From Candidatus Pacearchaeota archaeon (lineage in GTDB: Archaea > Nanobdellota > Nanobdellia > Pacearchaeales > GW2011-AR1), in assembly GCA_023144035.1 (NCBI GenBank), contig JAGLGM010000001.1:1091-65090 (forward strand): 64,000 nucleotides of DNA, read 5' to 3'. Positions 1-11,223 of the stretch are shown here, piece after piece; position 1 is the first letter of the stretch; each line of letters begins with the position of its first letter. Both the position numbers and the translations under genes were made by a program. A model generated the notes under the pieces. The model did not search any database. It was not told where the DNA came from and saw only the letters and a program-made list of their open reading frames with translations.

Positions 1-696
1 TAAAGTATTATGTAATCGCTGAATCAATTTCCCATAGATTTTATTAAAAGGAGAATCTGGTTGTAACCCTAATAACTTAACCACCTCATCAAATTTATTT
101 TGGGTATTTGAATGATCTGCCCAGATTCTTAAATTATACAAATAAAAAAAAGGCGCAATAATATTTGAATCATCAAAAAGAATTTCTTTAAAAAATATTC
201 CTAATATTTTAATACCTCCAAGTTTTGAATCAAACTCTATCTGTTTAGAATCCAAATAAGAAATGAATTTATCCTTATTTATTGTCTCTATAAATTTCTC
301 ATGGAGGTCGCTGATTATTCTTTTAAAATCTTCCTTATTGTTAAATGTTATTCTTTTATATGCAGAACACATCTTTAATAAGTCATCAATCTGGACTAAA
401 TCAAAATTAAACATTTTAAAACCAAATTTTTCTTGAAATTCAATATTTATCTTGTTTAATAATAGAAATAACTTAACTTCTAAAATACTCTCTGTGAATA
501 TTGCATCCAACTGTCCTTTTTTAAAATCTGATTCTATATTTTTATCTGAAATTACATTATATGGTTTTAAAATTAATTTTAATTTGTCAGGTAATCTTTG
601 TAAGTCTCCCAACCAAAAAATTACATGGTCTTGGGAATTTATACCAAAAGGAATGGAATCATCTTCAAAAATTAAAGCCCCATATGTTTCACTCAT
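1..696 (-). CDS. hypothetical protein, N-terminal part (gene continues beyond window start)
   Basis: Manual translation of minus strand from ATG at 696 gives protein-like sequence MSETYGALIFEDDSIPFGINSQDHVIFWLGDLQRLPDKL... with no stop before position 1; the listed + ORF 452..712 lies antisense to it. Confidence 0.5.
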   Translation of the reverse strand, partial: MSETYGALIFEDDSIPFGINSQDHVIFWLGDLQRLPDKLKLILKPYNVISDKNIESDFKKGQLDAIFTESILEVKLFLLLNKINIEFQEKFGFKMFNFDLVQIDDLLKMCSAYKRITFNNKEDFKRIISDLHEKFIETINKDKFISYLDSKQIEFDSKLGGIKILGIFFKEILFDDSNIIAPFFYLYNLRIWADHSNTQNKFDEVVKLLGLQPDSPFNKIYGKLIQRLHNTL

Positions 697-845
697 AAAT
701 TCACAACTATAATTTTGGGAATAAATAAACGTAATTAGAGCTTCTTTTTCAAAATATACTGGCGTTAAAAAATTATCTCTTTGAGGGGAATAATCTTCTG
801 CGGAATCATAAATAAACTCAATTAACATTTTAATAAATATTATTT

Positions 846-1541
846 TTATTTCAATAAATCTGAAATTTTCTCTAATTCTTTTTTAATTGTGTAACATTCA
901 TGTTGGAATGATTGAATAAAATTCTTATTCAAAATTATTTCTTTTTCATCTTTTCCTTGTTTATATTTTATAAAATACACTCTTTTTTTGTTATCAAAAT
1001 CCCCTAAGATGTGTGCAACTTGATTTCTAATCTCTTGAATCCACTTAATTTTTTCATAAAAATTTTTACTAATATCTTTTAAATTCATTCTTACAAGCAC
1101 CTTCCTCTTTTGCTCAAAAGAAAAAAACTCTTTTCTTAAGACATCTTTCTCAAACTTTTCTTTTTTATCTTGATCTTCAAGATAATACTCTTTTATTATT
1201 TTATCCAAGAGATATTCTATTTCTATTGCTTCTCTTATGATTATTCCAAGAATAGTAGAATAGGTAGAAATTTCTTCAATAGCGATAGGAATTTGAGCCT
1301 TTTCAATCTCAAAAGAATCATAATCAATTTCATCATCTTCTCCATCATAAATAGAGGGAACCTCAAACAAACCATGAAATCCACATTCTCCACACTCATA
1401 GGGATGGTTAAATCCCGCGTCATAATCTGCCTGTTGCCCTTCAGTCATCTCTCCTTGATCTAATTCTTCCATCTGATTTTTACATTTTGGACAAATAATT
1501 ATATGTTCTCCTGGCAAAAATTCTTCTCCATCTCCCATCAA
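846..1541 (-). CDS. zinc-ribbon plus HEPN-like (Abi-type, IRNQVAH = Rx4H) domain protein
   Basis: N-terminal CPKC...CGEC ribbon, acidic linker, C-terminal helical domain with EIRNQVAH motif typical of AbiD/F-like HEPN domains. Confidence 0.55.
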   Translation of the reverse strand: MMGDGEEFLPGEHIIICPKCKNQMEELDQGEMTEGQQADYDAGFNHPYECGECGFHGLFEVPSIYDGEDDEIDYDSFEIEKAQIPIAIEEISTYSTILGIIIREAIEIEYLLDKIIKEYYLEDQDKKEKFEKDVLRKEFFSFEQKRKVLVRMNLKDISKNFYEKIKWIQEIRNQVAHILGDFDNKKRVYFIKYKQGKDEKEIILNKNFIQSFQHECYTIKKELEKISDLLK

Positions 1542-1609
1542 TCTCCCAAGAATTACTTGATTTTATAGTTTTCTCTTTAGAAACACCCACGCCAAAAGAG
1601 TAGGGAAAG

Positions 1610-2239
1610 TTATCCATACTTTTCATTGTAATATTTATCAAAATTTTCTCTTTCTTTTTCATTATCTTTATTTTTTAAAATAGGAATATATGATTCAAAG
1701 TCCTTTTTTATTTCTTTTAAAAATAAAGAAGGATCCACTGTAATCCATTCTTCCCCATCAATATTGAATGTAAAAAAAGGAACACTTAAACCATATCTTA
1801 GGAGAGCACCTTTCCTTGTCATTCCGTCATGGAAAAGTCCGTGTCTTATTTTATCAATGAAATATTTGAGAATACTTTCTTCAGTAGTGGGAAAAATTCT
1901 TTTTAATGCTCTTTCTAACATCTCTGTGCTTTCTCCTTGTGATACTCTCCCTTCCCTAAATTGTTGATTCCCTTCAAGATAATTCACACAAATCATTAAG
2001 ACAATAAACTCTGAATTTTTTTCTTTTGTTAATTTTTCTGCAAAATCAAGAAACCATCCTTTTACCCTGTCTTCATAGATTAAAATATTTGTTTCTATAT
2101 TTTCTTCCAAAATTTTATCAACTTCATAAGGTTCTTTTTCAGATTTTAAAGTAATAATTTTATTTGAGAATTCAGGACTTTTATAATAATTGGGACTAAG
2201 AGAACCAACGCCTTTCACAATCAGAATTTTATCTTCCAT
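1610..2239 (-). CDS. hypothetical protein, possible HEPN-like C-terminal half (KIRHGLFH)
   Basis: 209-aa ORF, start 2 nt after stop of upstream gene; R-x4-H motif in helical C-terminal half. Confidence 0.45.
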   Translation of the reverse strand: MEDKILIVKGVGSLSPNYYKSPEFSNKIITLKSEKEPYEVDKILEENIETNILIYEDRVKGWFLDFAEKLTKEKNSEFIVLMICVNYLEGNQQFREGRVSQGESTEMLERALKRIFPTTEESILKYFIDKIRHGLFHDGMTRKGALLRYGLSVPFFTFNIDGEEWITVDPSLFLKEIKKDFESYIPILKNKDNEKERENFDKYYNEKYG

Positions 2240-2241
2240 TT

Positions 2242-2706
2242 TTATTCCTCCTTCTCTAAATAACCACTAACTCTGTTTTGTTTAGATTCTAAAGCCTTTT
2301 TTAATAACTCAACCCCTTTATTATTCTTACACCAATTATGTTTTATTAGGGAAGAATTTGTTAACTCTCTTTGATTCTTTTCTTTATTAAAATTTGATTT
2401 TTGATAAAATTTTTCTGAGGGCATACAAAAGAAATCTCCAGTATTTATATTGTGACAAACTATAAAAAAATTAAAGTTTGGTTTGAAGTCTTTTATAAAA
2501 AAGACATCTTCATCACTTTGAATATCTCTACTTTTAACTTGAATTTCTACCAGTCCCCCTTCTCTATCTTTAATTATTAAATCTGTTCCAGTATCTACTA
2601 CTGGCACAAAGACATCAAAATCATTTTTTAACAACTCAGAAATAATGTGGTATTCTATTGCTTTACCTTTTTTTGTATTATTTTTTGTTATCATTTTTAA
2701 AACCAT
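2242..2706 (-). CDS. PD-(D/E)xK nuclease-fold protein (Hjc/restriction endonuclease-like)
   Basis: AIEYHIISE...VDTGTDLII...LVEIQVK matches E / D / ExK arrangement of PD-(D/E)xK nucleases. Confidence 0.5.
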   Translation of the reverse strand: MVLKMITKNNTKKGKAIEYHIISELLKNDFDVFVPVVDTGTDLIIKDREGGLVEIQVKSRDIQSDEDVFFIKDFKPNFNFFIVCHNINTGDFFCMPSEKFYQKSNFNKEKNQRELTNSSLIKHNWCKNNKGVELLKKALESKQNRVSGYLEKEE

Positions 2707-3382
2707 ATTTAATTAAGATAATTGTTCTTGAAAAAGCCCATAACAGAGCTCCTGTTGAAAAAAATATAAAAATAAATTTAATTATTTTGTGAAATAGATT
2801 GGATTCAAGATAAACTTCTCCTTGTGGAAATAAAACAATAGTTTGTTTTTTATCAATTCCTTCTTGAGTTATACAAGTATTCTCACTTATAATCCAAATA
2901 CAATCAGATTTATTCACTATTTTAGGTAAAAGTTCAATTTCAGGAATTTCAAGATCAAATTCATATCTTAAATTAAATGTTATCTTTGAACCTTCTTTTG
3001 AAATTTTAAAACACTTTTTTCCAACTATGTTATAATATTCCCCTTTATTATAACTTGCATAAAAGCTTTGATTTGTTAGAGATTTATCTTTCTCAAAACA
3101 AATTCTATCTCTAGCATTTCCCAAATAAATGATCTTCCAAAAAATACTATTAAAATCCCCTGAAACTACATCTTCTTGAGTTAAATCAAATGAACCAATA
3201 TTAAGATAAGTTGTATCATTTTCTTTAATTTTTTCAACATCGTTTGAATATATTTTCAAATCAGGGAGAATGAAAAAATTAATGTATAAAGCGCATAAAA
3301 AGATAATTAAAAATATTAATATTTTTGATTTTTTGTTCCAAAGTCTTTTGATTTTCTTCATACTCTTATAAGTTTTGGGCAA
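2678..3382 (-). CDS. membrane-anchored hypothetical protein (N- and C-terminal TM segments)
   Basis: 234-aa ORF, hydrophobic segments at both ends, overlaps start of downstream nuclease-like gene (operon). Confidence 0.45.
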   Translation of the reverse strand: MPKTYKSMKKIKRLWNKKSKILIFLIIFLCALYINFFILPDLKIYSNDVEKIKENDTTYLNIGSFDLTQEDVVSGDFNSIFWKIIYLGNARDRICFEKDKSLTNQSFYASYNKGEYYNIVGKKCFKISKEGSKITFNLRYEFDLEIPEIELLPKIVNKSDCIWIISENTCITQEGIDKKQTIVLFPQGEVYLESNLFHKIIKFIFIFFSTGALLWAFSRTIILIKYGFKNDNKK

Positions 3383-3460
3383 TTTTATAGTTTTCTATAT
3401 TAAATGAAATAATCTTTAGAATTGCATAAAATACTTAAGGGTTTTTATAAATAAAAAAAT

Positions 3461-4282
3461 ATGGAAGAGAAATATAAAATTTCAATGGAAGAATTAATTT
3501 TACTTTTACTTGCATTCTTTTTCTTTTTTGTAATGTTCATTTTTTTAATAAAAATGAATTTTTTAATTTATTTTTTCTTTTTTTTAGTCTCTGCCACACT
3601 TATTCTCCTTTTTCCTATATTTTTAAAAAATAAATTACATAGAAGGTTTTTACTAAAGTGTTCACTTTTTCCGATATTTTTTATTTTGATTTTGATCTTT
3701 GTCCTATTTTGTTTTAATAATTATGAAGAAAAGGGTCAAAATTTAATCCCTTACGAAATAGAATTTGATGCATACATTGTAAATAATTCTATTACTCCTG
3801 GAAAACTTAATATGGATTTATTAAAAGCAAACGAAATATGGAATGAGCAGAATATCTTTTTGAGAATTAAAGAAACATTTTATATTGAAGAAATAGATTT
3901 CCTTGAAGAATCTTTTTTATTAAATGTAGATGCTACTAATAAATCAGAATGTTTAAAATATAATGAGATCATTTCATTTTCTAATAAAAGTGAACTAAGA
4001 TTAATTTTGCTTGATTCGGAGTCTAATCACAGAGGAAGAGGATGTATTTGTGGATGTGATTCAATAGTTGTTGATATTAAAAAAGAATTATCTCTTGATT
4101 TGACTGGATGGAACATTGCACATGAATTTGGCCATCTTTTTGGGCAGTTTGATATAAAAAATAGGTATAATTTAATGTGTGATCAACTTAAAGTAATAAA
4201 ACCTTCTTTCTTAAATAAAAAACAAATTTACTCACTGACAAGAAATACTTTTATATCGTCTTCAGTTAAAATTTATAATTAA
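3461..4282 (+). CDS. membrane-anchored putative zinc metallopeptidase (HExxH)
   Basis: Multi-TM N-terminus; IAHEFGHLFG contains HExxH zinc-binding motif. Confidence 0.5.
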   Translation: MEEKYKISMEELILLLLAFFFFFVMFIFLIKMNFLIYFFFFLVSATLILLFPIFLKNKLHRRFLLKCSLFPIFFILILIFVLFCFNNYEEKGQNLIPYEIEFDAYIVNNSITPGKLNMDLLKANEIWNEQNIFLRIKETFYIEEIDFLEESFLLNVDATNKSECLKYNEIISFSNKSELRLILLDSESNHRGRGCICGCDSIVVDIKKELSLDLTGWNIAHEFGHLFGQFDIKNRYNLMCDQLKVIKPSFLNKKQIYSLTRNTFISSSVKIYN

Positions 4283-4554: not shown

Positions 4555-5112
4555 TTAATTAATTTGTGATTCTTGTTTTTTACCTTTAAAACCTACATTT
4601 TTTAGCATACCCCTTTTTAATCCAATGTCCGACCTTCTTTTACGTGATTTTTTATCTTTTCCTCTCTTTCCAATTTTATGTTTATTTTTACTTGCTTGAA
4701 GACCTGCTTTTGTTCTTTCAGATATTTTCTCACGTTCTATTTTTGCAATTGTTGAAATGATTGATAAAACAACATCTTTGAATTGCCCAACACTCTTAAA
4801 ATATTGTTCTTGATAACTTTCCCATTCAATTCCTAAATTTTCAAGTTCTTTTAATTTTTGTAATGTGAATAAAGTTCCTGCCCTTGAAAATCTTGAGAGA
4901 TCCCAGAATAAAACCAAATCAAACAATCTTTTATGAGCATCTTTAAACATCTTATCATAAGAAGGTCTGTTTGTCTCTTTTCCTGAGATCACATCTATAT
5001 ATTCCCTAAAAATCTCATAATTGCATTTTTTACAATATTCTCTAAGTTGAAGTAACTGGTTGTTTACTTCTTGCTTATCTGTGCTTACCCTAACATATAT
5101 TCCTATTTTCAT
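4555..5112 (-). CDS. serine recombinase (resolvase/invertase family), small form
   Basis: N-terminal IGIYVRVSTDKQ catalytic motif of serine recombinases; basic C-terminal tail without obvious HTH. Confidence 0.75.
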   Translation of the reverse strand: MKIGIYVRVSTDKQEVNNQLLQLREYCKKCNYEIFREYIDVISGKETNRPSYDKMFKDAHKRLFDLVLFWDLSRFSRAGTLFTLQKLKELENLGIEWESYQEQYFKSVGQFKDVVLSIISTIAKIEREKISERTKAGLQASKNKHKIGKRGKDKKSRKRRSDIGLKRGMLKNVGFKGKKQESQIN

Positions 5113-5527: not shown

Positions 5528-5976
5528 TATAAAAATTCAGAAGGAGTATACTCTTCTTCCTCCCCTTCATTATCTTTAACGTCTTCTTCATTGTCTTCGT
5601 TTCCAGAAACCAATTCAGAGTTATATTTTTCTTTATTTTCTTCATCTAAGTTTTCAATCTTCTTTGAAATGTGTGATTCTATTTCCTTTATTCCTTTTTT
5701 AATTGCTTCATCAATATCTTTTAAGAAATCTTTTTTTGTTTTATCTATTTGTTTTTTTAATTTTTCAATATCTTTTTTGAAAGCTTTTACTTCGGAATTT
5801 TTTTCATTAACTTTTTTATTTTCCAAACCTTTAAGATTTCTTGATATTTTTTGGATCTCTTTTAATTTATCTTGTGTGATAAATTCTCCATTAAGTGTTT
5901 TAAGAAATCCTAAGAGATCTCTTTCTTCAACCAGTTTCTTTTCCCCATGCCATATAAAGTTTTTTTCAAATACCAT
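5527..5976 (-). CDS. hypothetical coiled-coil/acidic protein
   Basis: 149-aa ORF, K/E-rich heptad-like sequence, acidic C-terminus. Confidence 0.4.
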   Translation of the reverse strand: MVFEKNFIWHGEKKLVEERDLLGFLKTLNGEFITQDKLKEIQKISRNLKGLENKKVNEKNSEVKAFKKDIEKLKKQIDKTKKDFLKDIDEAIKKGIKEIESHISKKIENLDEENKEKYNSELVSGNEDNEEDVKDNEGEEEEYTPSEFL

Positions 5977-6557: not shown

Positions 6558-8307
6558 CTTTTTTAGAACCCTCTAATTTAATTTCATCGTCACATTCGTC
6601 ACCTTTCGTCACATTCGTCACACTTTTGATTTTTTTCTTTATTAATTCGTCACCTTTCGTCACACTTTTAGATGGATTCGTCACAAGGATTTCTTTATTT
6701 AAGAGTAATTGTGATGATTGTGATGATTGTGATAAATTATTTACTAAATTTGGGCAGATAGGGTTAATAATTGATTCAAAAATTATAGAATTGATAATAT
6801 ATTTTGCTCCATCTCTATCTTTTGGTTCTTTATATTCTCTAAAACCAAGATTATCTATTTTAGTTGAAAATCCTTTTTCTCTAGAAACATTTTCAGAACC
6901 ATACAAATCAATATATTTCTTTCTAACTTCTTTAGGCCTAATAATATCCGTGTCTTGAATAATATCTTTTATAATTTTCAGAATTTTATAATCAAAACTA
7001 TCTTCTGGAATAAAATCTTCTCTCCTTTGTCCAGACATTTTTTCAGCAAAAGTAGAAATTTCTAAAAATAATTCATCATCAATTAATTTTGATATTGCTA
7101 AAAGGGGTTTCCAAATTTGTAAATCTCTTTTTTTTAATTTTAAATCAGAATAAAAGGATTCATTTCTATAATTTATTTCAATATTTTTCCAATACTTTAA
7201 AGAAAATAAATAAAGGTAATCTCTAATCATAGACCATTCTATATCTGAATCTACAATTTCCATTTCCCCTCTTGAATCTGTATTTGGACTTCTTGTACAT
7301 ATTTGAGTTATACATCTACTTTCAGTTGCTCCAAATAAACCCTTAATAGAAGAAATCATACAAGGAGAAAAAGTATTATAATAAATTGTCTTAAATCTGT
7401 TATTAATTTTTTCTACCCTCGGAACAGCTGAACCTTTCTTATAACTCCCATTAATTAATTCTACCCTGTTATCTGGCTCCATTTGTCCTTGATTCCATCT
7501 AAATAATTTCTCTGCTTCATCAAAATATTTAGTTGGTCTTTTCTCATGAGATTCTCTAAATAATGTTGCTTCACTTGGATTAATCATTATTCCAGTAGAA
7601 TTAAAAGAAAGATTTTTGCTAATTTCCATTCTTTTACTCTTTGCTGTTTCTTGCATACCTCTTTTCTCAGAAATAGGAAAAGCATCAAATAATTGATAAA
7701 AATAAGTTCCAATATCCCAAAGACTATTTATTTTATTCCAAATTGGGTTGTGTTCAAAAATATATTTGCCATATTGCTTTTCAACTTTATCAAAAAGTTC
7801 TTTAGGTTCTAAATCTGGAGTTTCACCTTCTCCTTTCAAAAATTCATTTATAGATTCTAAACTCCATCTCAAATTAATATTGTCTGGAACAACATCAAAT
7901 TTTATTTTATGTTCTTGCTCCATCTCTTTAGTAACTTCTAAAATATTTCTATCTGAAGAAATAATTACTGGTTTCCAAATTTGTTCTTTTGAAACAACTT
8001 CTCCAACTTTATTAGTCACAGGTTCATTTTTAGGCAAATAAATTCCATATCCAAAAAGATTCTCATTAAATTTTGTTTGAGTGAATGTTCTTGTTTTATG
8101 TACATCATCTTCATTAAAAATATAATTAATCATAATTTTCTTCTTTCTATCTAAATCTAAAGGAGAAACTTTTACATCCACTTGTCCAATTTTAACTTCG
8201 TCTTTAATTCCTTTAAGAACTATTGAACCATCATTCTTAATTTCAGAATGTTTCTCTAAGTCTTCTTTCAACATTTTAGAATATTTCCTTTTATCTTTTT
8301 TATTCAT
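6547..8307 (-). CDS. large hypothetical protein of integrated element (possible replication-associated)
   Basis: 586-aa ORF; no recognisable catalytic motif; 3' end carries phased GTGACGA repeats. Confidence 0.55.
   Translation of the reverse strand: MNKKDKRKYSKMLKEDLEKHSEIKNDGSIVLKGIKDEVKIGQVDVKVSPLDLDRKKKIMINYIFNEDDVHKTRTFTQTKFNENLFGYGIYLPKNEPVTNKVGEVVSKEQIWKPVIISSDRNILEVTKEMEQEHKIKFDVVPDNINLRWSLESINEFLKGEGETPDLEPKELFDKVEKQYGKYIFEHNPIWNKINSLWDIGTYFYQLFDAFPISEKRGMQETAKSKRMEISKNLSFNSTGIMINPSEATLFRESHEKRPTKYFDEAEKLFRWNQGQMEPDNRVELINGSYKKGSAVPRVEKINNRFKTIYYNTFSPCMISSIKGLFGATESRCITQICTRSPNTDSRGEMEIVDSDIEWSMIRDYLYLFSLKYWKNIEINYRNESFYSDLKLKKRDLQIWKPLLAISKLIDDELFLEISTFAEKMSGQRREDFIPEDSFDYKILKIIKDIIQDTDIIRPKEVRKKYIDLYGSENVSREKGFSTKIDNLGFREYKEPKDRDGAKYIINSIIFESIINPICPNLVNNLSQSSQSSQLLLNKEILVTNPSKSVTKGDELIKKKIKSVTNVTKGDECDDEIKLEGSKKDEK
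6584..6730. repeat. seven GTGACGA/TCGTCAC copies at ~10-bp phasing plus 3x GTGATGATT
   Basis: TCGTCAC at ~6587, 6597, 6607, 6617, 6657, 6667, 6678; tgtgatgattgtgatgattgtgata at ~6705-6730; inside the C-terminal coding region of 6547..8307. Confidence 0.6.
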
Positions 8308-9102: not shown

Positions 9103-9885
9103 TTGGTTAAAATGGACAAAAAAATCACAGGACAAAACCTCATAGTAGCAAACAAAAACAAAGAAATTGTTGAACATCTTTTTACCAATTATCATAGTAG
9201 ATCAGAGATATATGCAAAGATAGACCCCAAAGGGTATGACCAATATAAAAAAAGCTTAATAATTAGAGACATCCAAGGAGGAATTAAACCAAAGCCAAGA
9301 AAAGCAAAACATTATTCTAAAACACCCATCAACAATAAAATTGTTGAGGCTTTCAAAATATTTTATGCAGAAGGATTTCTAATACAACAAAAACCAATCC
9401 AATATAGGAAACAACCCAGTAAAACAGGAAAATTATACTCTTACCCTATTAAAAGATATAAATTAAATCCCAATTTTTTCTTTGATTATGTTAAAAAAGA
9501 GTTAAAAGGAAATTATTTTACTAAAAAAGAAATACTTGAAATAAGATTTTATCTTGATAATCCCAATATTAGAAAAATGATAGTTAAGAATTATAATAAA
9601 CAAAATAATTTAATAGAAAAAATAAAATATTTTTTACTTGATTTTTACGTGATTTCTGAAACCGATTTTTATTTTAGATTTTTTTCTGAAACAATCACTA
9701 ATTATAAAGAATTATTAAAATTAAATGAAAAAGGGAAAAATTCAAATATTTTATGGAGATTAAGTGATTATGAAATAGGAGGAGAAAAAGAACAAACCAA
9801 AATAAAAAAAGATATAGGGAAAAAAATTAAACTTTTATTTGGATTTGATGGAAAATTAACAAAAGAATTTTCTTCTTTATTCTAA
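9103..9885 (+). CDS. hypothetical protein
   Basis: 260-aa ORF converging on integrase gene. Confidence 0.45.
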   Translation: MVKMDKKITGQNLIVANKNKEIVEHLFTNYHSRSEIYAKIDPKGYDQYKKSLIIRDIQGGIKPKPRKAKHYSKTPINNKIVEAFKIFYAEGFLIQQKPIQYRKQPSKTGKLYSYPIKRYKLNPNFFFDYVKKELKGNYFTKKEILEIRFYLDNPNIRKMIVKNYNKQNNLIEKIKYFLLDFYVISETDFYFRFFSETITNYKELLKLNEKGKNSNILWRLSDYEIGGEKEQTKIKKDIGKKIKLLFGFDGKLTKEFSSLF

Positions 9886-11109
9886 TTTAATCTTAACTTC
9901 TTTATTCATTTTGAATCCTTCTTCAAGAACTTTTTTTAACAACTCTTTTACTTGATCTAAATCTTCTTTTTGTCTTTCCATTCTCTGTCCAACAAGTTTT
10001 TCTCTTTGTTTACTTTCTTCTAATTCATCTTTAACATCTTCAAGATTGTTATTATAATGAACTTTTTTAGCCCTTTTACGATTAATTGCAAGATAATTTA
10101 TATAAGATTCTAACCATTTGCTTTGAGGGGAATGTCCAAGTCTAAGATTTATGTCTTCAACATGCCATCCTTGAGAAAATAAATAACAGGCCATACCAGA
10201 TCTCAAATCTTTCCAAGAAGGTTTCTCTCCTTCGGGTTCACATTTAACTCCTGCTCTTTTAACAACACTATCAAATATTTGCAAAGCTTGTCTGTATTTA
10301 AAACTAAAAATAAAATCATCTTCTTTAAAGGGTACTGCTTTTCTTCTAATCATTCCTTTTTCATCCCTATATTCTGTTTCTTTTCCATATTTAAAAAGTG
10401 CATCTAAAAATCTTAATGTTTCAGGATAAATAGTTGGTTCGCTTCTTGTTTGTCTACTTCTTTTTAGATTTTCTTTAGGAAGATAAACTAAATATTCTTC
10501 TTGTTTTGTATCTCTATTTAATTGTCTCTTAAAATGTTTAACTCTCAATTCTAAAAGAGCAGTAATATTTTCACCAAGATCCCAAGCTAACCAAAATAAA
10601 GCATAATGTTGTGGCTTATGAAGAAAGTTTAACATTCTTTTGAATCCTTCTTCATTAATAAACCGAACTTGTTTTTTTCTTTTATCTGTGAAAAACTCTA
10701 AAGCATTTTCTACAACATCACTTAATCCTGCAAGTTTAAATGGTTTGGACTTGAAGACTTTATTATAATAACCTCTTCTATCTTCAAATCTCCTTCCAGA
10801 ACGATTTTTAATTTTACCATCTTCTAAATCATTATAGACTTGTTTAATTTCTTTTTCAGTTAATTTATTCCAGGCTTTATTTTTAAACCAATTATTCACA
10901 TTTCTAAATTTATTGATATAACCATAAAGAGTTTTATATGAAGACTCATCAATCTTAGGGAGACCATTTTGCCTTTTTAGTTTCTCTTCTTCCCATGCAA
11001 AAAATTTGTTAAACAAATCACGATTATATTTTATAATAGAATTATCTTCTAAAAGAGCTTTTTTTGTTTTCTTATATCTATCTTCAAAACTCATAAAATC
11101 ACTACACAA
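9877..11109 (-). CDS. tyrosine recombinase / phage-type integrase
   Basis: C-terminal boxes DLRSGMACYLFSQG and RLGHSPQSKWLESYINYL (LGH...Y) ; gene abuts 3' end of tRNA-Asp. Confidence 0.8.
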   Translation of the reverse strand: MCSDFMSFEDRYKKTKKALLEDNSIIKYNRDLFNKFFAWEEEKLKRQNGLPKIDESSYKTLYGYINKFRNVNNWFKNKAWNKLTEKEIKQVYNDLEDGKIKNRSGRRFEDRRGYYNKVFKSKPFKLAGLSDVVENALEFFTDKRKKQVRFINEEGFKRMLNFLHKPQHYALFWLAWDLGENITALLELRVKHFKRQLNRDTKQEEYLVYLPKENLKRSRQTRSEPTIYPETLRFLDALFKYGKETEYRDEKGMIRRKAVPFKEDDFIFSFKYRQALQIFDSVVKRAGVKCEPEGEKPSWKDLRSGMACYLFSQGWHVEDINLRLGHSPQSKWLESYINYLAINRKRAKKVHYNNNLEDVKDELEESKQREKLVGQRMERQKEDLDQVKELLKKVLEEGFKMNKEVKIKLE

Positions 11110-11151
11110 AAGGTATTTTTAAACTCTCCTATTGTGCAGTGTCTTACGCCA

Positions 11152-11223
11152 CGCCCACGCCGGGAATCGAACCCGGGTTGCATCCGCGACAGGGATGAGT
11201 CATAGCCGTTAGACCACGTAGGC
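11152..11223 (-). tRNA. tRNA-Asp (anticodon GUC)
   Basis: Hand-folded cloverleaf: acceptor GCCUACG/CGUGGGC, anticodon stem CAUCC/GGAUG with loop CUGUCGC, T-arm CCGGG-UUCGAUU-CCCGG, discriminator G, no encoded CCA. Confidence 0.8.

Follow-up and report, generated by a model that had tools for sequence, protein, structure and literature searches.

A probable patchwork of single-gene, nuclease-type conflict genes integrated at tRNA-Asp in Candidatus Pacearchaeota

The locus described here lies within a 64,000-nucleotide stretch of a Candidatus Pacearchaeota contig, referred to below as the window. An initial annotation had described four minus-strand ORFs, designated here p4, p3, p2 and p1, as a tightly coupled operon, and all four ORFs were found (Table 1). 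The motifs that had been quoted in support of the individual protein assignments, i.e., AIEYHIISE, VDTGTDLII and EIQVK in p3, KIRHGLFH in p2 and EIRNQVAH in p1, are also present, and the assignments themselves proved mostly right. A fifth co-directional gene, p5, which starts 17 nt past p1 (ATG at position 828), had been overlooked; the block therefore does not consist of four genes. Diverged homologues (60-82% identity) are known from other loci for p1, p2, p3 and p5, and these four are therefore considered real genes. The probable true starts of p4, p3 and p1 match the public annotation. The reported coupling holds for the first three genes, as p4 and p3 overlap by 29 nt when measured from the ORF ends (17 nt with the publicly annotated starts) and p3 and p2 are 2 nt apart, but it breaks between p2 and p1, where a gap of 68-71 nt holds an att-like core and a promoter-like 14-mer.

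Table 1. Genes, att-like sequences and promoter-like motifs at the tRNA-Asp integration site (window coordinates).
Feature	Position	Strand	Description
p5	1..828	-	Truncated at the window edge; complete in L001 (284 aa)
p1	846..1541	-	231 aa ORF; likely start ATG 1538 (second Met), 230 aa; zinc ribbon + predicted HEPN-type domain
Promoter-like 14-mer GAAAACTATAAAAT, copy 2	1560..1573	-	TATAAAA centered 26 nt upstream of ATG 1538 (p1)
Internal att-like core GGCGTGGGTGT	1583..1593	-	10/11 bases identical to the tRNA-Asp 3' end core
p2	1610..2239	-	209 aa; predicted HEPN-like fold; R132-x4-H137; final gene ahead of the internal att-like site
p3	2242..2706	-	154 aa ORF; likely start ATG 2694, 150 aa; PDDEXK_5
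p4	2678..3382	-	234 aa ORF; likely start ATG 3361, 227 aa; opens putative transcription unit 1
Promoter-like 14-mer GAAAACTATAAAAT, copy 1	3382..3395	-	TATAAAA centered 25 nt upstream of ATG 3361 (p4)
Serine recombinase (resolvase)	4555..5112	-	Element backbone; Pfam Resolvase E=2.4e-31
Putative tyrosine-type integrase	9877..11109	-	Left end of the element, beside tRNA-Asp
tRNA-Asp(GTC)	11151..11223	-	3' end = attL, core 11151-11161

The genes had been placed in integrated DNA adjoining recombinases, and this is their correct setting, with a tRNA-Asp site, an integrase-like gene and a resolvase gene. The match of the integrase-like protein to Phage_integrase is weak and sub-threshold (E=0.0044), and its assignment is supported by its position beside attL. 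A 13-mer of the tRNA-Asp 3' end, CGGCGTGGGCGTG, is repeated exactly 40 nt past the p5 stop (positions 11605-11617 of L001, outside the window), and these exact 13-nt direct repeats lie 11.2 kb apart. The locus thus shows an integrase-like gene beside a tRNA gene and repeats of the tRNA 3' end that bound the insert, as found in tRNA-targeting integrative elements. No copy as good as the internal att-like core in the gap between p2 and p1 would be expected in shuffled sequence, and the left flank of this core shares homology with the right end of the element that carries p3 in each of two other loci, L021 and L023. Judged from the sequence, the internal core is likely the right end of the element that carries p4, p3 and p2, although this copy, being degenerate, could be an old scar instead of a current element boundary. 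The insert would then fall into two parts: a segment of approximately 9.6 kb that runs from the integrase gene through the RHH and resolvase genes to p4-p3-p2 and ends at the degenerate att copy, and a segment of approximately 1.65 kb that holds p1 and p5 behind a putative TATA-type promoter of its own, bounded by the internal copy and the distal exact copy. When all proteins were searched against Pfam, NCBIfam, PHROGs and PADLOC, informative matches were limited to the resolvase, RHH and, for p3, PDDEXK_5.

GAAAACTATAAAAT occurs in just two exact copies within the window, one upstream of p4 and one upstream of p1. Window-wide, TATA-like motifs peak at -24 to -27 from the first ATG, where they were found for 14 of 42 genes as compared to approximately 2 genes per other bin, and the 25-26 nt spacing of TATAAAA in the two copies agrees with this peak. 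When up to 2 mismatches are allowed, GAAAACTATAAAAT shows no enrichment (12 matches across the window versus 8.4 expected), and the informative part of this motif is therefore limited to its two exact copies and their spacing. These copies suggest that p4-p3-p2 and p1-p5 are two transcription units, each with a putative promoter.

The description of p4 as a membrane protein is borne out by two transmembrane or hydrophobic segments (residues 18-45 and 196-224, by hydropathy). Neither the fetched loci nor viral contigs yielded a p4 homologue, and viral-contig scans also gave no relatives of p1 or p3. The nuclease fold proposed for p3 was recovered as a match to Pfam PDDEXK_5 (PF11645) with 33.6 bits, above the gathering cutoff of 26.1 (E=4.5e-08, residues 10-69); p3 also matches phrog_5018, while sequence and profile searches against the PDB returned nothing meaningful. 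The match covers the catalytic N-terminal core of PDDEXK_5, and D42 and an E54-x-Q56-x-K58 block were read by eye in p3. Only the first part of the profile (62 of 138 positions) is matched and the C-terminal half of p3 differs. Relatives of p3 with 60-91% identity were found in loci L019-L024. One of these, L020, is a related element whose resolvase is 75% identical to the one in the window and which likewise holds a p3 homologue, with 80% identity, yet the genes downstream differ.

For p2, which had been called HEPN-like on the basis of an R-x4-H motif, the motif was found to be invariant in the family, and the structural model, which is of high confidence, has a helix order that fits HEPN. 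The model shows, as expected of HEPN domains, a four-helix up-down bundle in which the motif ends helix 3, helix 2 bears an acidic residue and helices 2 and 3 are separated by an insert; the N-terminal part forms a beta domain. The R and H lie at a helix end, and further invariant acidic residues were found at E56 and E89. Neither p2 nor any of the 35 family members matched Pfam, NCBIfam, PADLOC or PHROG models, and the p2 profile gave no match in the PDB. p2 appears to be the founding member of an uncharacterized DPANN family of 62 members with a predicted HEPN-like fold and an invariant R132-x4-H137. Relatives with 82%, 71%, 63% and 62% identity were found in loci that lack the other four proteins, and the closest ones are solo genes; several close relatives of p2, as well as of p5, lie among housekeeping genes with no evident island. 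One relative (39% identity) lies within a type I R-M operon, after hsdM or hsdS on either side, overlapping hsdS by 8 nt, and another p2-like gene lies upstream of an MmeI-type enzyme (type IIG R-M). In L011 and L012, a 216-aa gene adjoins the p1 relatives; tblastn ruled it out as a possible p2 homologue.

The combination of a zinc ribbon and a HEPN motif reported for p1 is supported by an invariant C4 ribbon (C17, C20, C50 and C53), which carries an invariant MTEGQQADY..GFN insert, and by an invariant R-N-x3-H motif. R172-N173-x3-H177 is invariant in 8 full-length relatives, and the same three residues (R, N and H) show no variation among 38 sequences of the C-terminal domain. An exhaustive profile search yielded 201 relatives, many of which consist of the C-terminal domain alone; two genomic contexts were examined, both on short contigs. 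A polar residue after the R is typical of HEPN proteins (PMC3710099), and p1 has a conserved Rx4-6H with such a residue. The best PDB match of the C-terminal profile is the HEPN domain of Csm6, a weak match (E=0.066) that falls on the catalytic RNkvaH. Other weak matches include the PADLOC models RTasHEPN (E=0.003) and Csm6-like, and Pfam HEPN_RiboL-PSP was found sub-threshold (E=2e-4) in 2 of 10 p1 relatives, both distant. The HEPN assignment of p1 is thus a prediction that draws on the motif and on weak profile matches (E 0.003-0.07).

The fifth protein, p5, consists of an N-terminal beta-rich domain with the motifs FLTPVYF/SETYG/WLGD and a C-terminal helical domain with an invariant R234-x4-H239 at a helix end. 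The residue after the R is I or L and thus not polar, and the matches of this family include some HEPN proteins and also MtlR. Sequence and profile searches against the PDB yielded nothing meaningful, a fold search of BFVD yielded nothing and a search of the phage collection gave no match. The family is broad, with at least 169 members; it occurs in archaea and bacteria and is widespread in the latter, including members from Vreelandella, Alkalimonas and Albidovulum prophages. A scan of genome contigs with a narrow pattern set identified at least 6 loci. Relatives with 69%, 68% and 65% identity are found in loci without the other four proteins. Among the wider family, p5-like genes adjoin GmrSD, lie inside prophage structural modules or, in one case, are followed by a SUKH-1 immunity gene, and one is located immediately 3' of gmtX on a Pseudomonas plasmid, in the cargo slot of a gamma-mobile-trio. 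Homologues of p5 were also found beside tRNA genes in L013 and L033; those in L013 lie between copies of the 3' end of the local tRNA-Asp, while a search for a downstream att copy in L033 found none.

A HEPN assignment therefore has good support in the case of p1 and p2, with weaker support for p5. Profile-profile comparison revealed no relationship among these three Rx4H families, which rules out that p1, p2 and p5 are paralogues. Members of the p2 and p5 alignments matched no Pfam family, and all three families are absent from Pfam and PADLOC. No nucleotidyltransferase domain, as in HEPN-MNT pairs, was found in p1-p5 or in adjacent ORFs. The closest known counterparts are single-gene HEPN proteins of abortive infection and defense, i.e., AbiF/AbiD, AbiJ, AbiU2, AbiV, ApeA and the RiboL-PSP-HEPN clade (PMC3710099), which share with p1, p2 and p5 a compact architecture in which an accessory domain at the N-terminus precedes a helical domain with a conserved Rx4-6H, the typical R-N-x3-H in the case of p1, carriage by mobile elements, vicinity to R-M genes and a predicted stand-alone mode. 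The three proteins differ from this catalogue in that they reach no Pfam or PADLOC model for HEPN or Abi proteins and in that their N-terminal domains, i.e., the MTEGQQADY zinc ribbon of p1, the beta domain of p2 and the FLTPVYF/SETYG/WLGD domain of p5, are undescribed; their activity is a prediction. At least 16 HEPN clades have been linked to R-M operons (PMC3710099). The p2 relative within a type I R-M operon mirrors PrrC-PrrI, in which a HEPN RNase backs up R-M; unlike PrrC/RloC, however, p2 has no ABC-ATPase domain, p2 in the window is not beside R-M genes and its closest relatives are solo. With regard to Csm6/Csx1 of type III CRISPR-Cas, the R-N-x3-H of p1 aligns on the catalytic NLRNKVAHN of Csm6, and p2 has a beta-hairpin directly past its motif, as does Csx1, but a CARF domain and a CRISPR-Cas context are lacking and the similarity to Csm6 is weak and restricted to the motif region.

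The initial annotation had proposed that the four genes form one novel module of defense or abortive infection, which would combine a membrane sensor with a DNase and with HEPN RNases. The genes, with or without p5, are indeed co-directional and closely spaced, their products are all of the nuclease or membrane type and they lie within a mobile element. Co-occurrence elsewhere had been set beforehand as the test that could refute such a module, and it was absent from every locus examined: tblastn found no two of the five proteins together in approximately 29 loci that hold relatives of p1, p2, p3 or p5, including relatives with 80-82% identity. Moreover, the block crosses an att-like junction and contains a second promoter-like motif, both of which part p2 from p1, and the element in L020 has retained p3 while the neighbors of this gene were replaced. 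Searches of the PADLOC-DB v2 system models returned weak matches for p1 (E of at least 0.003) and none for p2, p3, p4 or p5. A single multi-component system is therefore highly improbable. Taking into consideration the att junction, the two promoter-like motifs and the absence of co-occurrence, the region is probably a patchwork of nuclease-type conflict genes, each independent of the others, that mobile elements have brought as cargo to the tRNA-Asp site of the Candidatus Pacearchaeota chromosome.

A smaller module, in which p3 would act with a coupled upstream membrane protein and/or a swappable downstream nuclease-type partner, as in a variable-effector cassette, appears unlikely. A membrane gene overlaps the start of p3 in the window and in L020, L021 and L024, and the gene downstream of p3 varies, being p2 in the window, a 168-aa protein in L020, an HNH endonuclease in L021 (Pfam E=1e-11) and, in L023, a 235-aa protein that contains RNNYIH (the putative motifs of the L020 and L023 proteins were read by eye). 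However, no similarity was detected among the upstream membrane proteins, whose size and topology also vary, and small membrane genes are common across these elements, so that the adjacency may be incidental. In addition, the p3 homologue in L019 has a zinc-ribbon ORF upstream and no same-strand partner downstream, the one in L023 is N-terminally truncated, and the partners in L020 and L023 have no Pfam match. We give about the same low weight to the idea that the genes serve the mobile elements themselves, with p3 as a junction-resolving or homing nuclease and the Rx4H proteins as addiction toxins, competition factors or RNA-processing factors. All five genes do lie in integrated DNA with the cargo at the att-proximal end, the synteny of p3 and the backbone resolvase extends to L020, and the SUKH-1 immunity gene after one p5-like gene is a hallmark of toxin-immunity pairs. 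Against this, no antitoxin-like partner (e.g., MNT) adjoins any of the Rx4H genes, chromosomes retain solo genes closely related to p2 and p5 at sites where no element is recognizable, and the presence of p2-like genes within R-M operons points to defense of the host or the element; the distinction from defense is, in part, semantic. It is even less probable that p2 and/or p5 are not nucleases but helical bundles that use the R and H in ligand or protein binding, like non-catalytic HEPN-like domains or regulators of the MtlR type. The non-polar residue after the R of p5, the presence of MtlR among its matches and the lack of any sequence profile that ties p2 or p5 to a HEPN family would be consistent with this idea, whereas it is opposed by the strict invariance of R and H across 35-41 diverse sequences in each of the two families, at a helix end as in HEPN, by the additional invariant acidic residues of p2 and by genomic contexts that are typical of nuclease toxins.

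Under the patchwork explanation, p3 would be a DNase-fold PDDEXK_5 cargo protein encoded by a gene whose start overlaps the upstream membrane gene p4, and each Rx4H protein would be a self-contained HEPN RNase that combines sensor and effector. Dimerization could form a composite Rx4H active site, which, once triggered, would cleave cellular or invader RNA. By analogy with PrrC-, ApeA- and Abi-type HEPN proteins, the outcome may be protection of the host or of the element through abortive infection or toxin activity. What the analysis shows directly is the structure of the genes, the copies of att, the conservation of each family, the fold models and the absence of co-occurrence; a role in defense, RNase activity and use of the two promoters are what we infer. 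P2/P4 prophage hot spots and integron cassettes represent hot spots of mobile-element cargo. The locus resembles these, as well as the gamma-mobile-trio, in having a fixed backbone (integrase, resolvase and p3) with variable nuclease-type genes at the att-proximal end, and in the occurrence of p5 homologues as short att-flanked units beside tRNA genes. It differs in its DPANN tRNA-Asp site and in that copies of the tRNA 3' end, rather than attC, bound the cassettes. A more far-reaching proposal, which we regard as doubtful at present, is that p2, p1 and p5 represent three new and mechanistically distinct families of single-protein HEPN RNase defense, and that short integrase-less units bounded by the tRNA 3' end shuffle compact defense genes in DPANN archaea as cassettes (p1-p5 here and a single p5 gene in Nanoarchaeota UBA9966), mobilized in trans by same-tRNA integrases of larger elements.

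When nuclease-like genes are tightly packed in a mobile element, their spacing does not in itself demonstrate a multi-component system; what looks like an operon at this locus spans a likely recombination junction. Since DPANN archaea have tiny genomes with few recognized immune systems, compact defense genes are of particular interest in this group. These archaea reportedly favor single-gene systems of compact size (PMC12988326). The locus provides three uncharacterized families whose members bear the catalytic motif that marks HEPN RNases. Among them, the p5 family occupies classic slots of defense and toxin genes, i.e., prophage inserts, gamma-mobile-trio cargo and positions beside GmrSD or a SUKH immunity gene, and its bacterial members can be tested directly in standard phage-challenge assays.

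The four minus-strand open reading frames proposed in the initial annotation (p4, p3, p2 and p1) are present at exactly the coordinates proposed, and all motifs quoted for them were found in their products. By hydropathy analysis, p4 is hydrophobic at residues 18-45 and again at residues 196-224, consistent with the membrane protein proposed; p1, p2 and p3 have no such segment. The tight coupling suggested for these genes holds for p4 and p3, which overlap, and for p3 and p2, which are separated by 2 nt, while the gap between p2 and p1 is 68-71 nt. Moreover, a fifth co-directional gene, p5, had been overlooked; its full-length product, as encoded in the longer public contig L001 (window coordinate = 11539 - L001 coordinate), has 284 aa. 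The earlier observation is confirmed in part, its domain-level reading being largely correct. The GC content of the window is approximately 26%. The p1 sequence is identical to that of a hypothetical protein from a Candidatus Pacearchaeota MAG, and a 241-kb scaffold carries this locus as well.

Features of the p4-p5 locus and of loci carrying relatives (window coordinates unless prefixed)
Feature	Coordinates	Strand	Remarks
p4	2678-3382	-	
p3	2242-2706	-	
p2	1610-2239	-	
p1	846-1541	-	
p5	1-828; complete, L001 10711-11565	-	ATG at 828, 17 nt past p1; exits window edge
tRNA-Asp	11152-11223		at one end of integrated DNA
Integrase-like gene	9877-11109		adjoins tRNA-Asp; weak Pfam match only
Repeat of CGGCGTGGGCGTG	L001 11605-11617		40 nt past p5 stop
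Internal att-like copy, GGCGTGGGTGT	1583-1593		inside p2/p1 gap
GAAAACTATAAAAT	1560-1573		just downstream of internal att copy
GAAAACTATAAAAT	3382-3395		upstream of p4
Overlap of membrane gene with p3 start	2678-2706; L020 5004-5007; L021 242-245; L024 ~886		
Genes near p3 homologues	L023 2433-3140; L023 1174-1761; L020 5459-5965		small proteins
273-aa gene	3461-4282	+	divergent
Direct repeat ATTCGTCACCTTTCGTCACA	6594-6613; 6645-6664		spacing 51 nt
DUF5667 genes	L001 11659-14283; 14997-16577		outside integrated DNA
Sequences upstream of DUF5667 genes	L001 11623-11675; 14979-15031		~53 nt
MazE-like gene and 101-aa gene	L001 14366-14881		
Giant ORF, 4302 aa	29911-42819	+	
Giant ORF, 1650 aa	53761-58713	-	
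Type I R-M operon	L008 1561-9822		
p5-like gene and SUKH-1 gene	L030 375-2087		
p5 homologue at tRNA-Asp	L013 5613-6920		
Intron-containing tRNA	L033 5710-5885		176 nt

The proposal that the four genes form one system was not supported. Loci were gathered for p2 (seven contexts), p1 (two), p5 (approximately fourteen) and p3 (six), and tblastn searches of these loci with all five proteins never found a second component beside any relative, even beside p2 relatives with 82%, 71%, 63% and 62% identity, p5 relatives with 69%, 68% and 65% identity or p3 relatives with 80% identity. The related element in L020, for example, encodes a resolvase that is 75% identical and a p3 that is 80% identical, yet its neighbor genes are different. 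Since the genes never occurred together elsewhere in the gathered loci, the observation that the initial annotation had named as refuting a four-gene system was made. No relatives of p4 were found in the fetched loci or in viral contigs.

Among the individual proteins, p3 scored above the Pfam threshold for PDDEXK_5 over the catalytic core. In p1, the C4 zinc ribbon is invariant and carries a distinctive insert, MTEGQQADY..GFN; the R-N-x3-H motif is likewise invariant. Exhaustive profile searching recovered 201 relatives, of which many represent the C-terminal domain alone, and only R, N and H were invariant among 38 sequences of this domain. The C-terminal profile matched the HEPN domain of Csm6 best among PDB entries, albeit weakly (E=0.066), with the alignment placed on the catalytic motif, and sub-threshold matches to HEPN models were in line with this assignment. 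The p5 family comprises at least 169 proteins, approximately 285 aa long, from a range of bacteria and from DPANN archaea. Its members share a conserved N-terminal domain (FLTPVYF/SETYG/FGIN/WLGD), and R234..H239 (LYDLRLWADH), at the end of a helix, is invariant. The HEPN assignment of p5 is weaker: a non-polar residue follows the R, and generic bundles outrank the HEPN matches. The p1, p2 and p5 families are absent from Pfam, NCBIfam, PADLOC and PHROGs with assigned function, and profile-profile comparison detected no relationship among them.

The last 13 nt of the tRNA-Asp region, CGGCGTGGGCGTG, are repeated exactly past p5, where no chance copies are expected, indicating that the whole block lies inside approximately 11.2 kb of DNA integrated at this tRNA gene. 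This DNA also encodes an RHH protein, a serine recombinase and a 586-aa protein. The 586-aa protein matched no family, its only relative being a weak one in L020, and its C-terminal coding region carries an exact 20-nt direct repeat. The 273-aa gene product has transmembrane segments at its N-terminus and, toward its C-terminus, the motif HEFGH (HExxH), features that suggest a membrane-anchored zinc metalloprotease; it has no Pfam match. Just beyond the integrated DNA, tandem paralogous genes encode secreted Cys-rich DUF5667 proteins, each preceded by a conserved sequence that includes a TATA-like box; between them lie two further genes, one MazE-like and one of 101 aa. Two giant ORFs are found within the window.

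A third att-like copy, matching at 10 of 11 bases (none expected in shuffles), lies between p2 and p1. Its left flank, ccctactctttt, is similar to the matching flanks in L021 and L023, where the exact att core is found downstream of p3 homologues, and this likeness indicates that the internal copy is probably the right end of a family of p3-carrying elements; in L024, the exact core is found at the tRNA-Asp directly upstream of the p3 homologue. The only two exact copies of GAAAACTATAAAAT in the window each place the center of TATAAAA 25-26 nt upstream of a publicly annotated ATG (p4 and p1). Archaeal promoters of leaderless mRNAs have their TATA box at such a distance from the ATG. Relative to the first ATG, TATA-like motifs in the window peak sharply at -24 to -27 (in 14 of the 42 long ORFs, compared to about 2 per other 4-nt bin), which implies that transcripts in this genome may be mostly leaderless. 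From the internal att junction and the two GAAAACTATAAAAT copies with their TATA spacing, we infer that p4-p3-p2 and p1-p5 are two putative transcription units, each in a segment with boundaries of its own; these segments span approximately 9.6 kb (from the integrase end through p2) and 1.65 kb (p1-p5).

Relatives of p2 and p5 are found in settings that are those expected for mobile conflict genes. The type I R-M operon of L008 (hsdR, hsdM, hsdS) has three inserts between hsdM and hsdS. One encodes a Schlafen/AlbA_2-HATPase_c_4-wHTH protein, one consists of two small ORFs, and the third is a p2-like gene with an 8-nt overlap with hsdS; another p2-like gene is found a short distance upstream of an MmeI-type enzyme. 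A p5-like gene adjoins GmrSD, and others are inserted singly into the structural modules of alphaproteobacterial prophages. In a Pseudomonas plasmid, the gene that comes first after gmtX is p5-like in its C-terminal half. In L030, near large serine recombinases, a gene of the SUKH-1 (SMI1/KNR4) immunity family directly follows that for a p5-like protein of 419 aa, which is extended at its N-terminus by a zinc ribbon; the arrangement is toxin-immunity-like. A Nanoarchaeota genome (UBA9966, L013) has its p5 homologue beside tRNA-Asp. The 3' end of this genome's own tRNA is present there in three exact copies (GGCTGAGGC at 5676, 5818 and 6907; 0.01 expected by chance), and the p5 homologue is enclosed by the second and the third. 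Judged by sequence, this is a unit of a single gene, att-flanked and lacking an integrase, and thereby a parallel to the p1-p5 segment. In L033, an intron-containing tRNA (Rfam, 37.2 bits) that was missed by ARAGORN precedes a p5 homologue by 115 nt; a downstream search for a repeat of the tRNA 3' end found none. These settings agree with reports of a linkage of many HEPN clades to R-M operons (PMC3710099) and with the report that DPANN archaea favor compact single-gene systems (PMC12988326).

The best-supported reading is that each of p1, p2 and p5, the proteins with an Rx4H motif, would be a self-contained sensor and HEPN RNase working alone. By analogy with characterized HEPN proteins, each would dimerize and cleave RNA once triggered, with RNase activity, triggers and defense role all putative, and p3 would be an independent DNase-fold protein. 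Less probably, p3 may belong to a smaller module, its partner being either the membrane gene that overlaps it upstream or a nuclease downstream that can be swapped. Four loci show such an overlap between a membrane gene and the start of p3. However, the membrane proteins concerned bear no relation to one another in sequence, size or topology, and the p3 of L023 is truncated. Small proteins encoded near the L020 and L023 homologues of p3 carry R-x-H-type strings read by eye (RNNYIH, CRILWAH and RIQHYLSH) and have no Pfam matches; they may represent further HEPN-like cargo.

The locus contributes three undescribed, putatively HEPN-type families, one of which is widespread. The small cassettes flanked by tRNA 3' end copies in DPANN genomes are also noteworthy.
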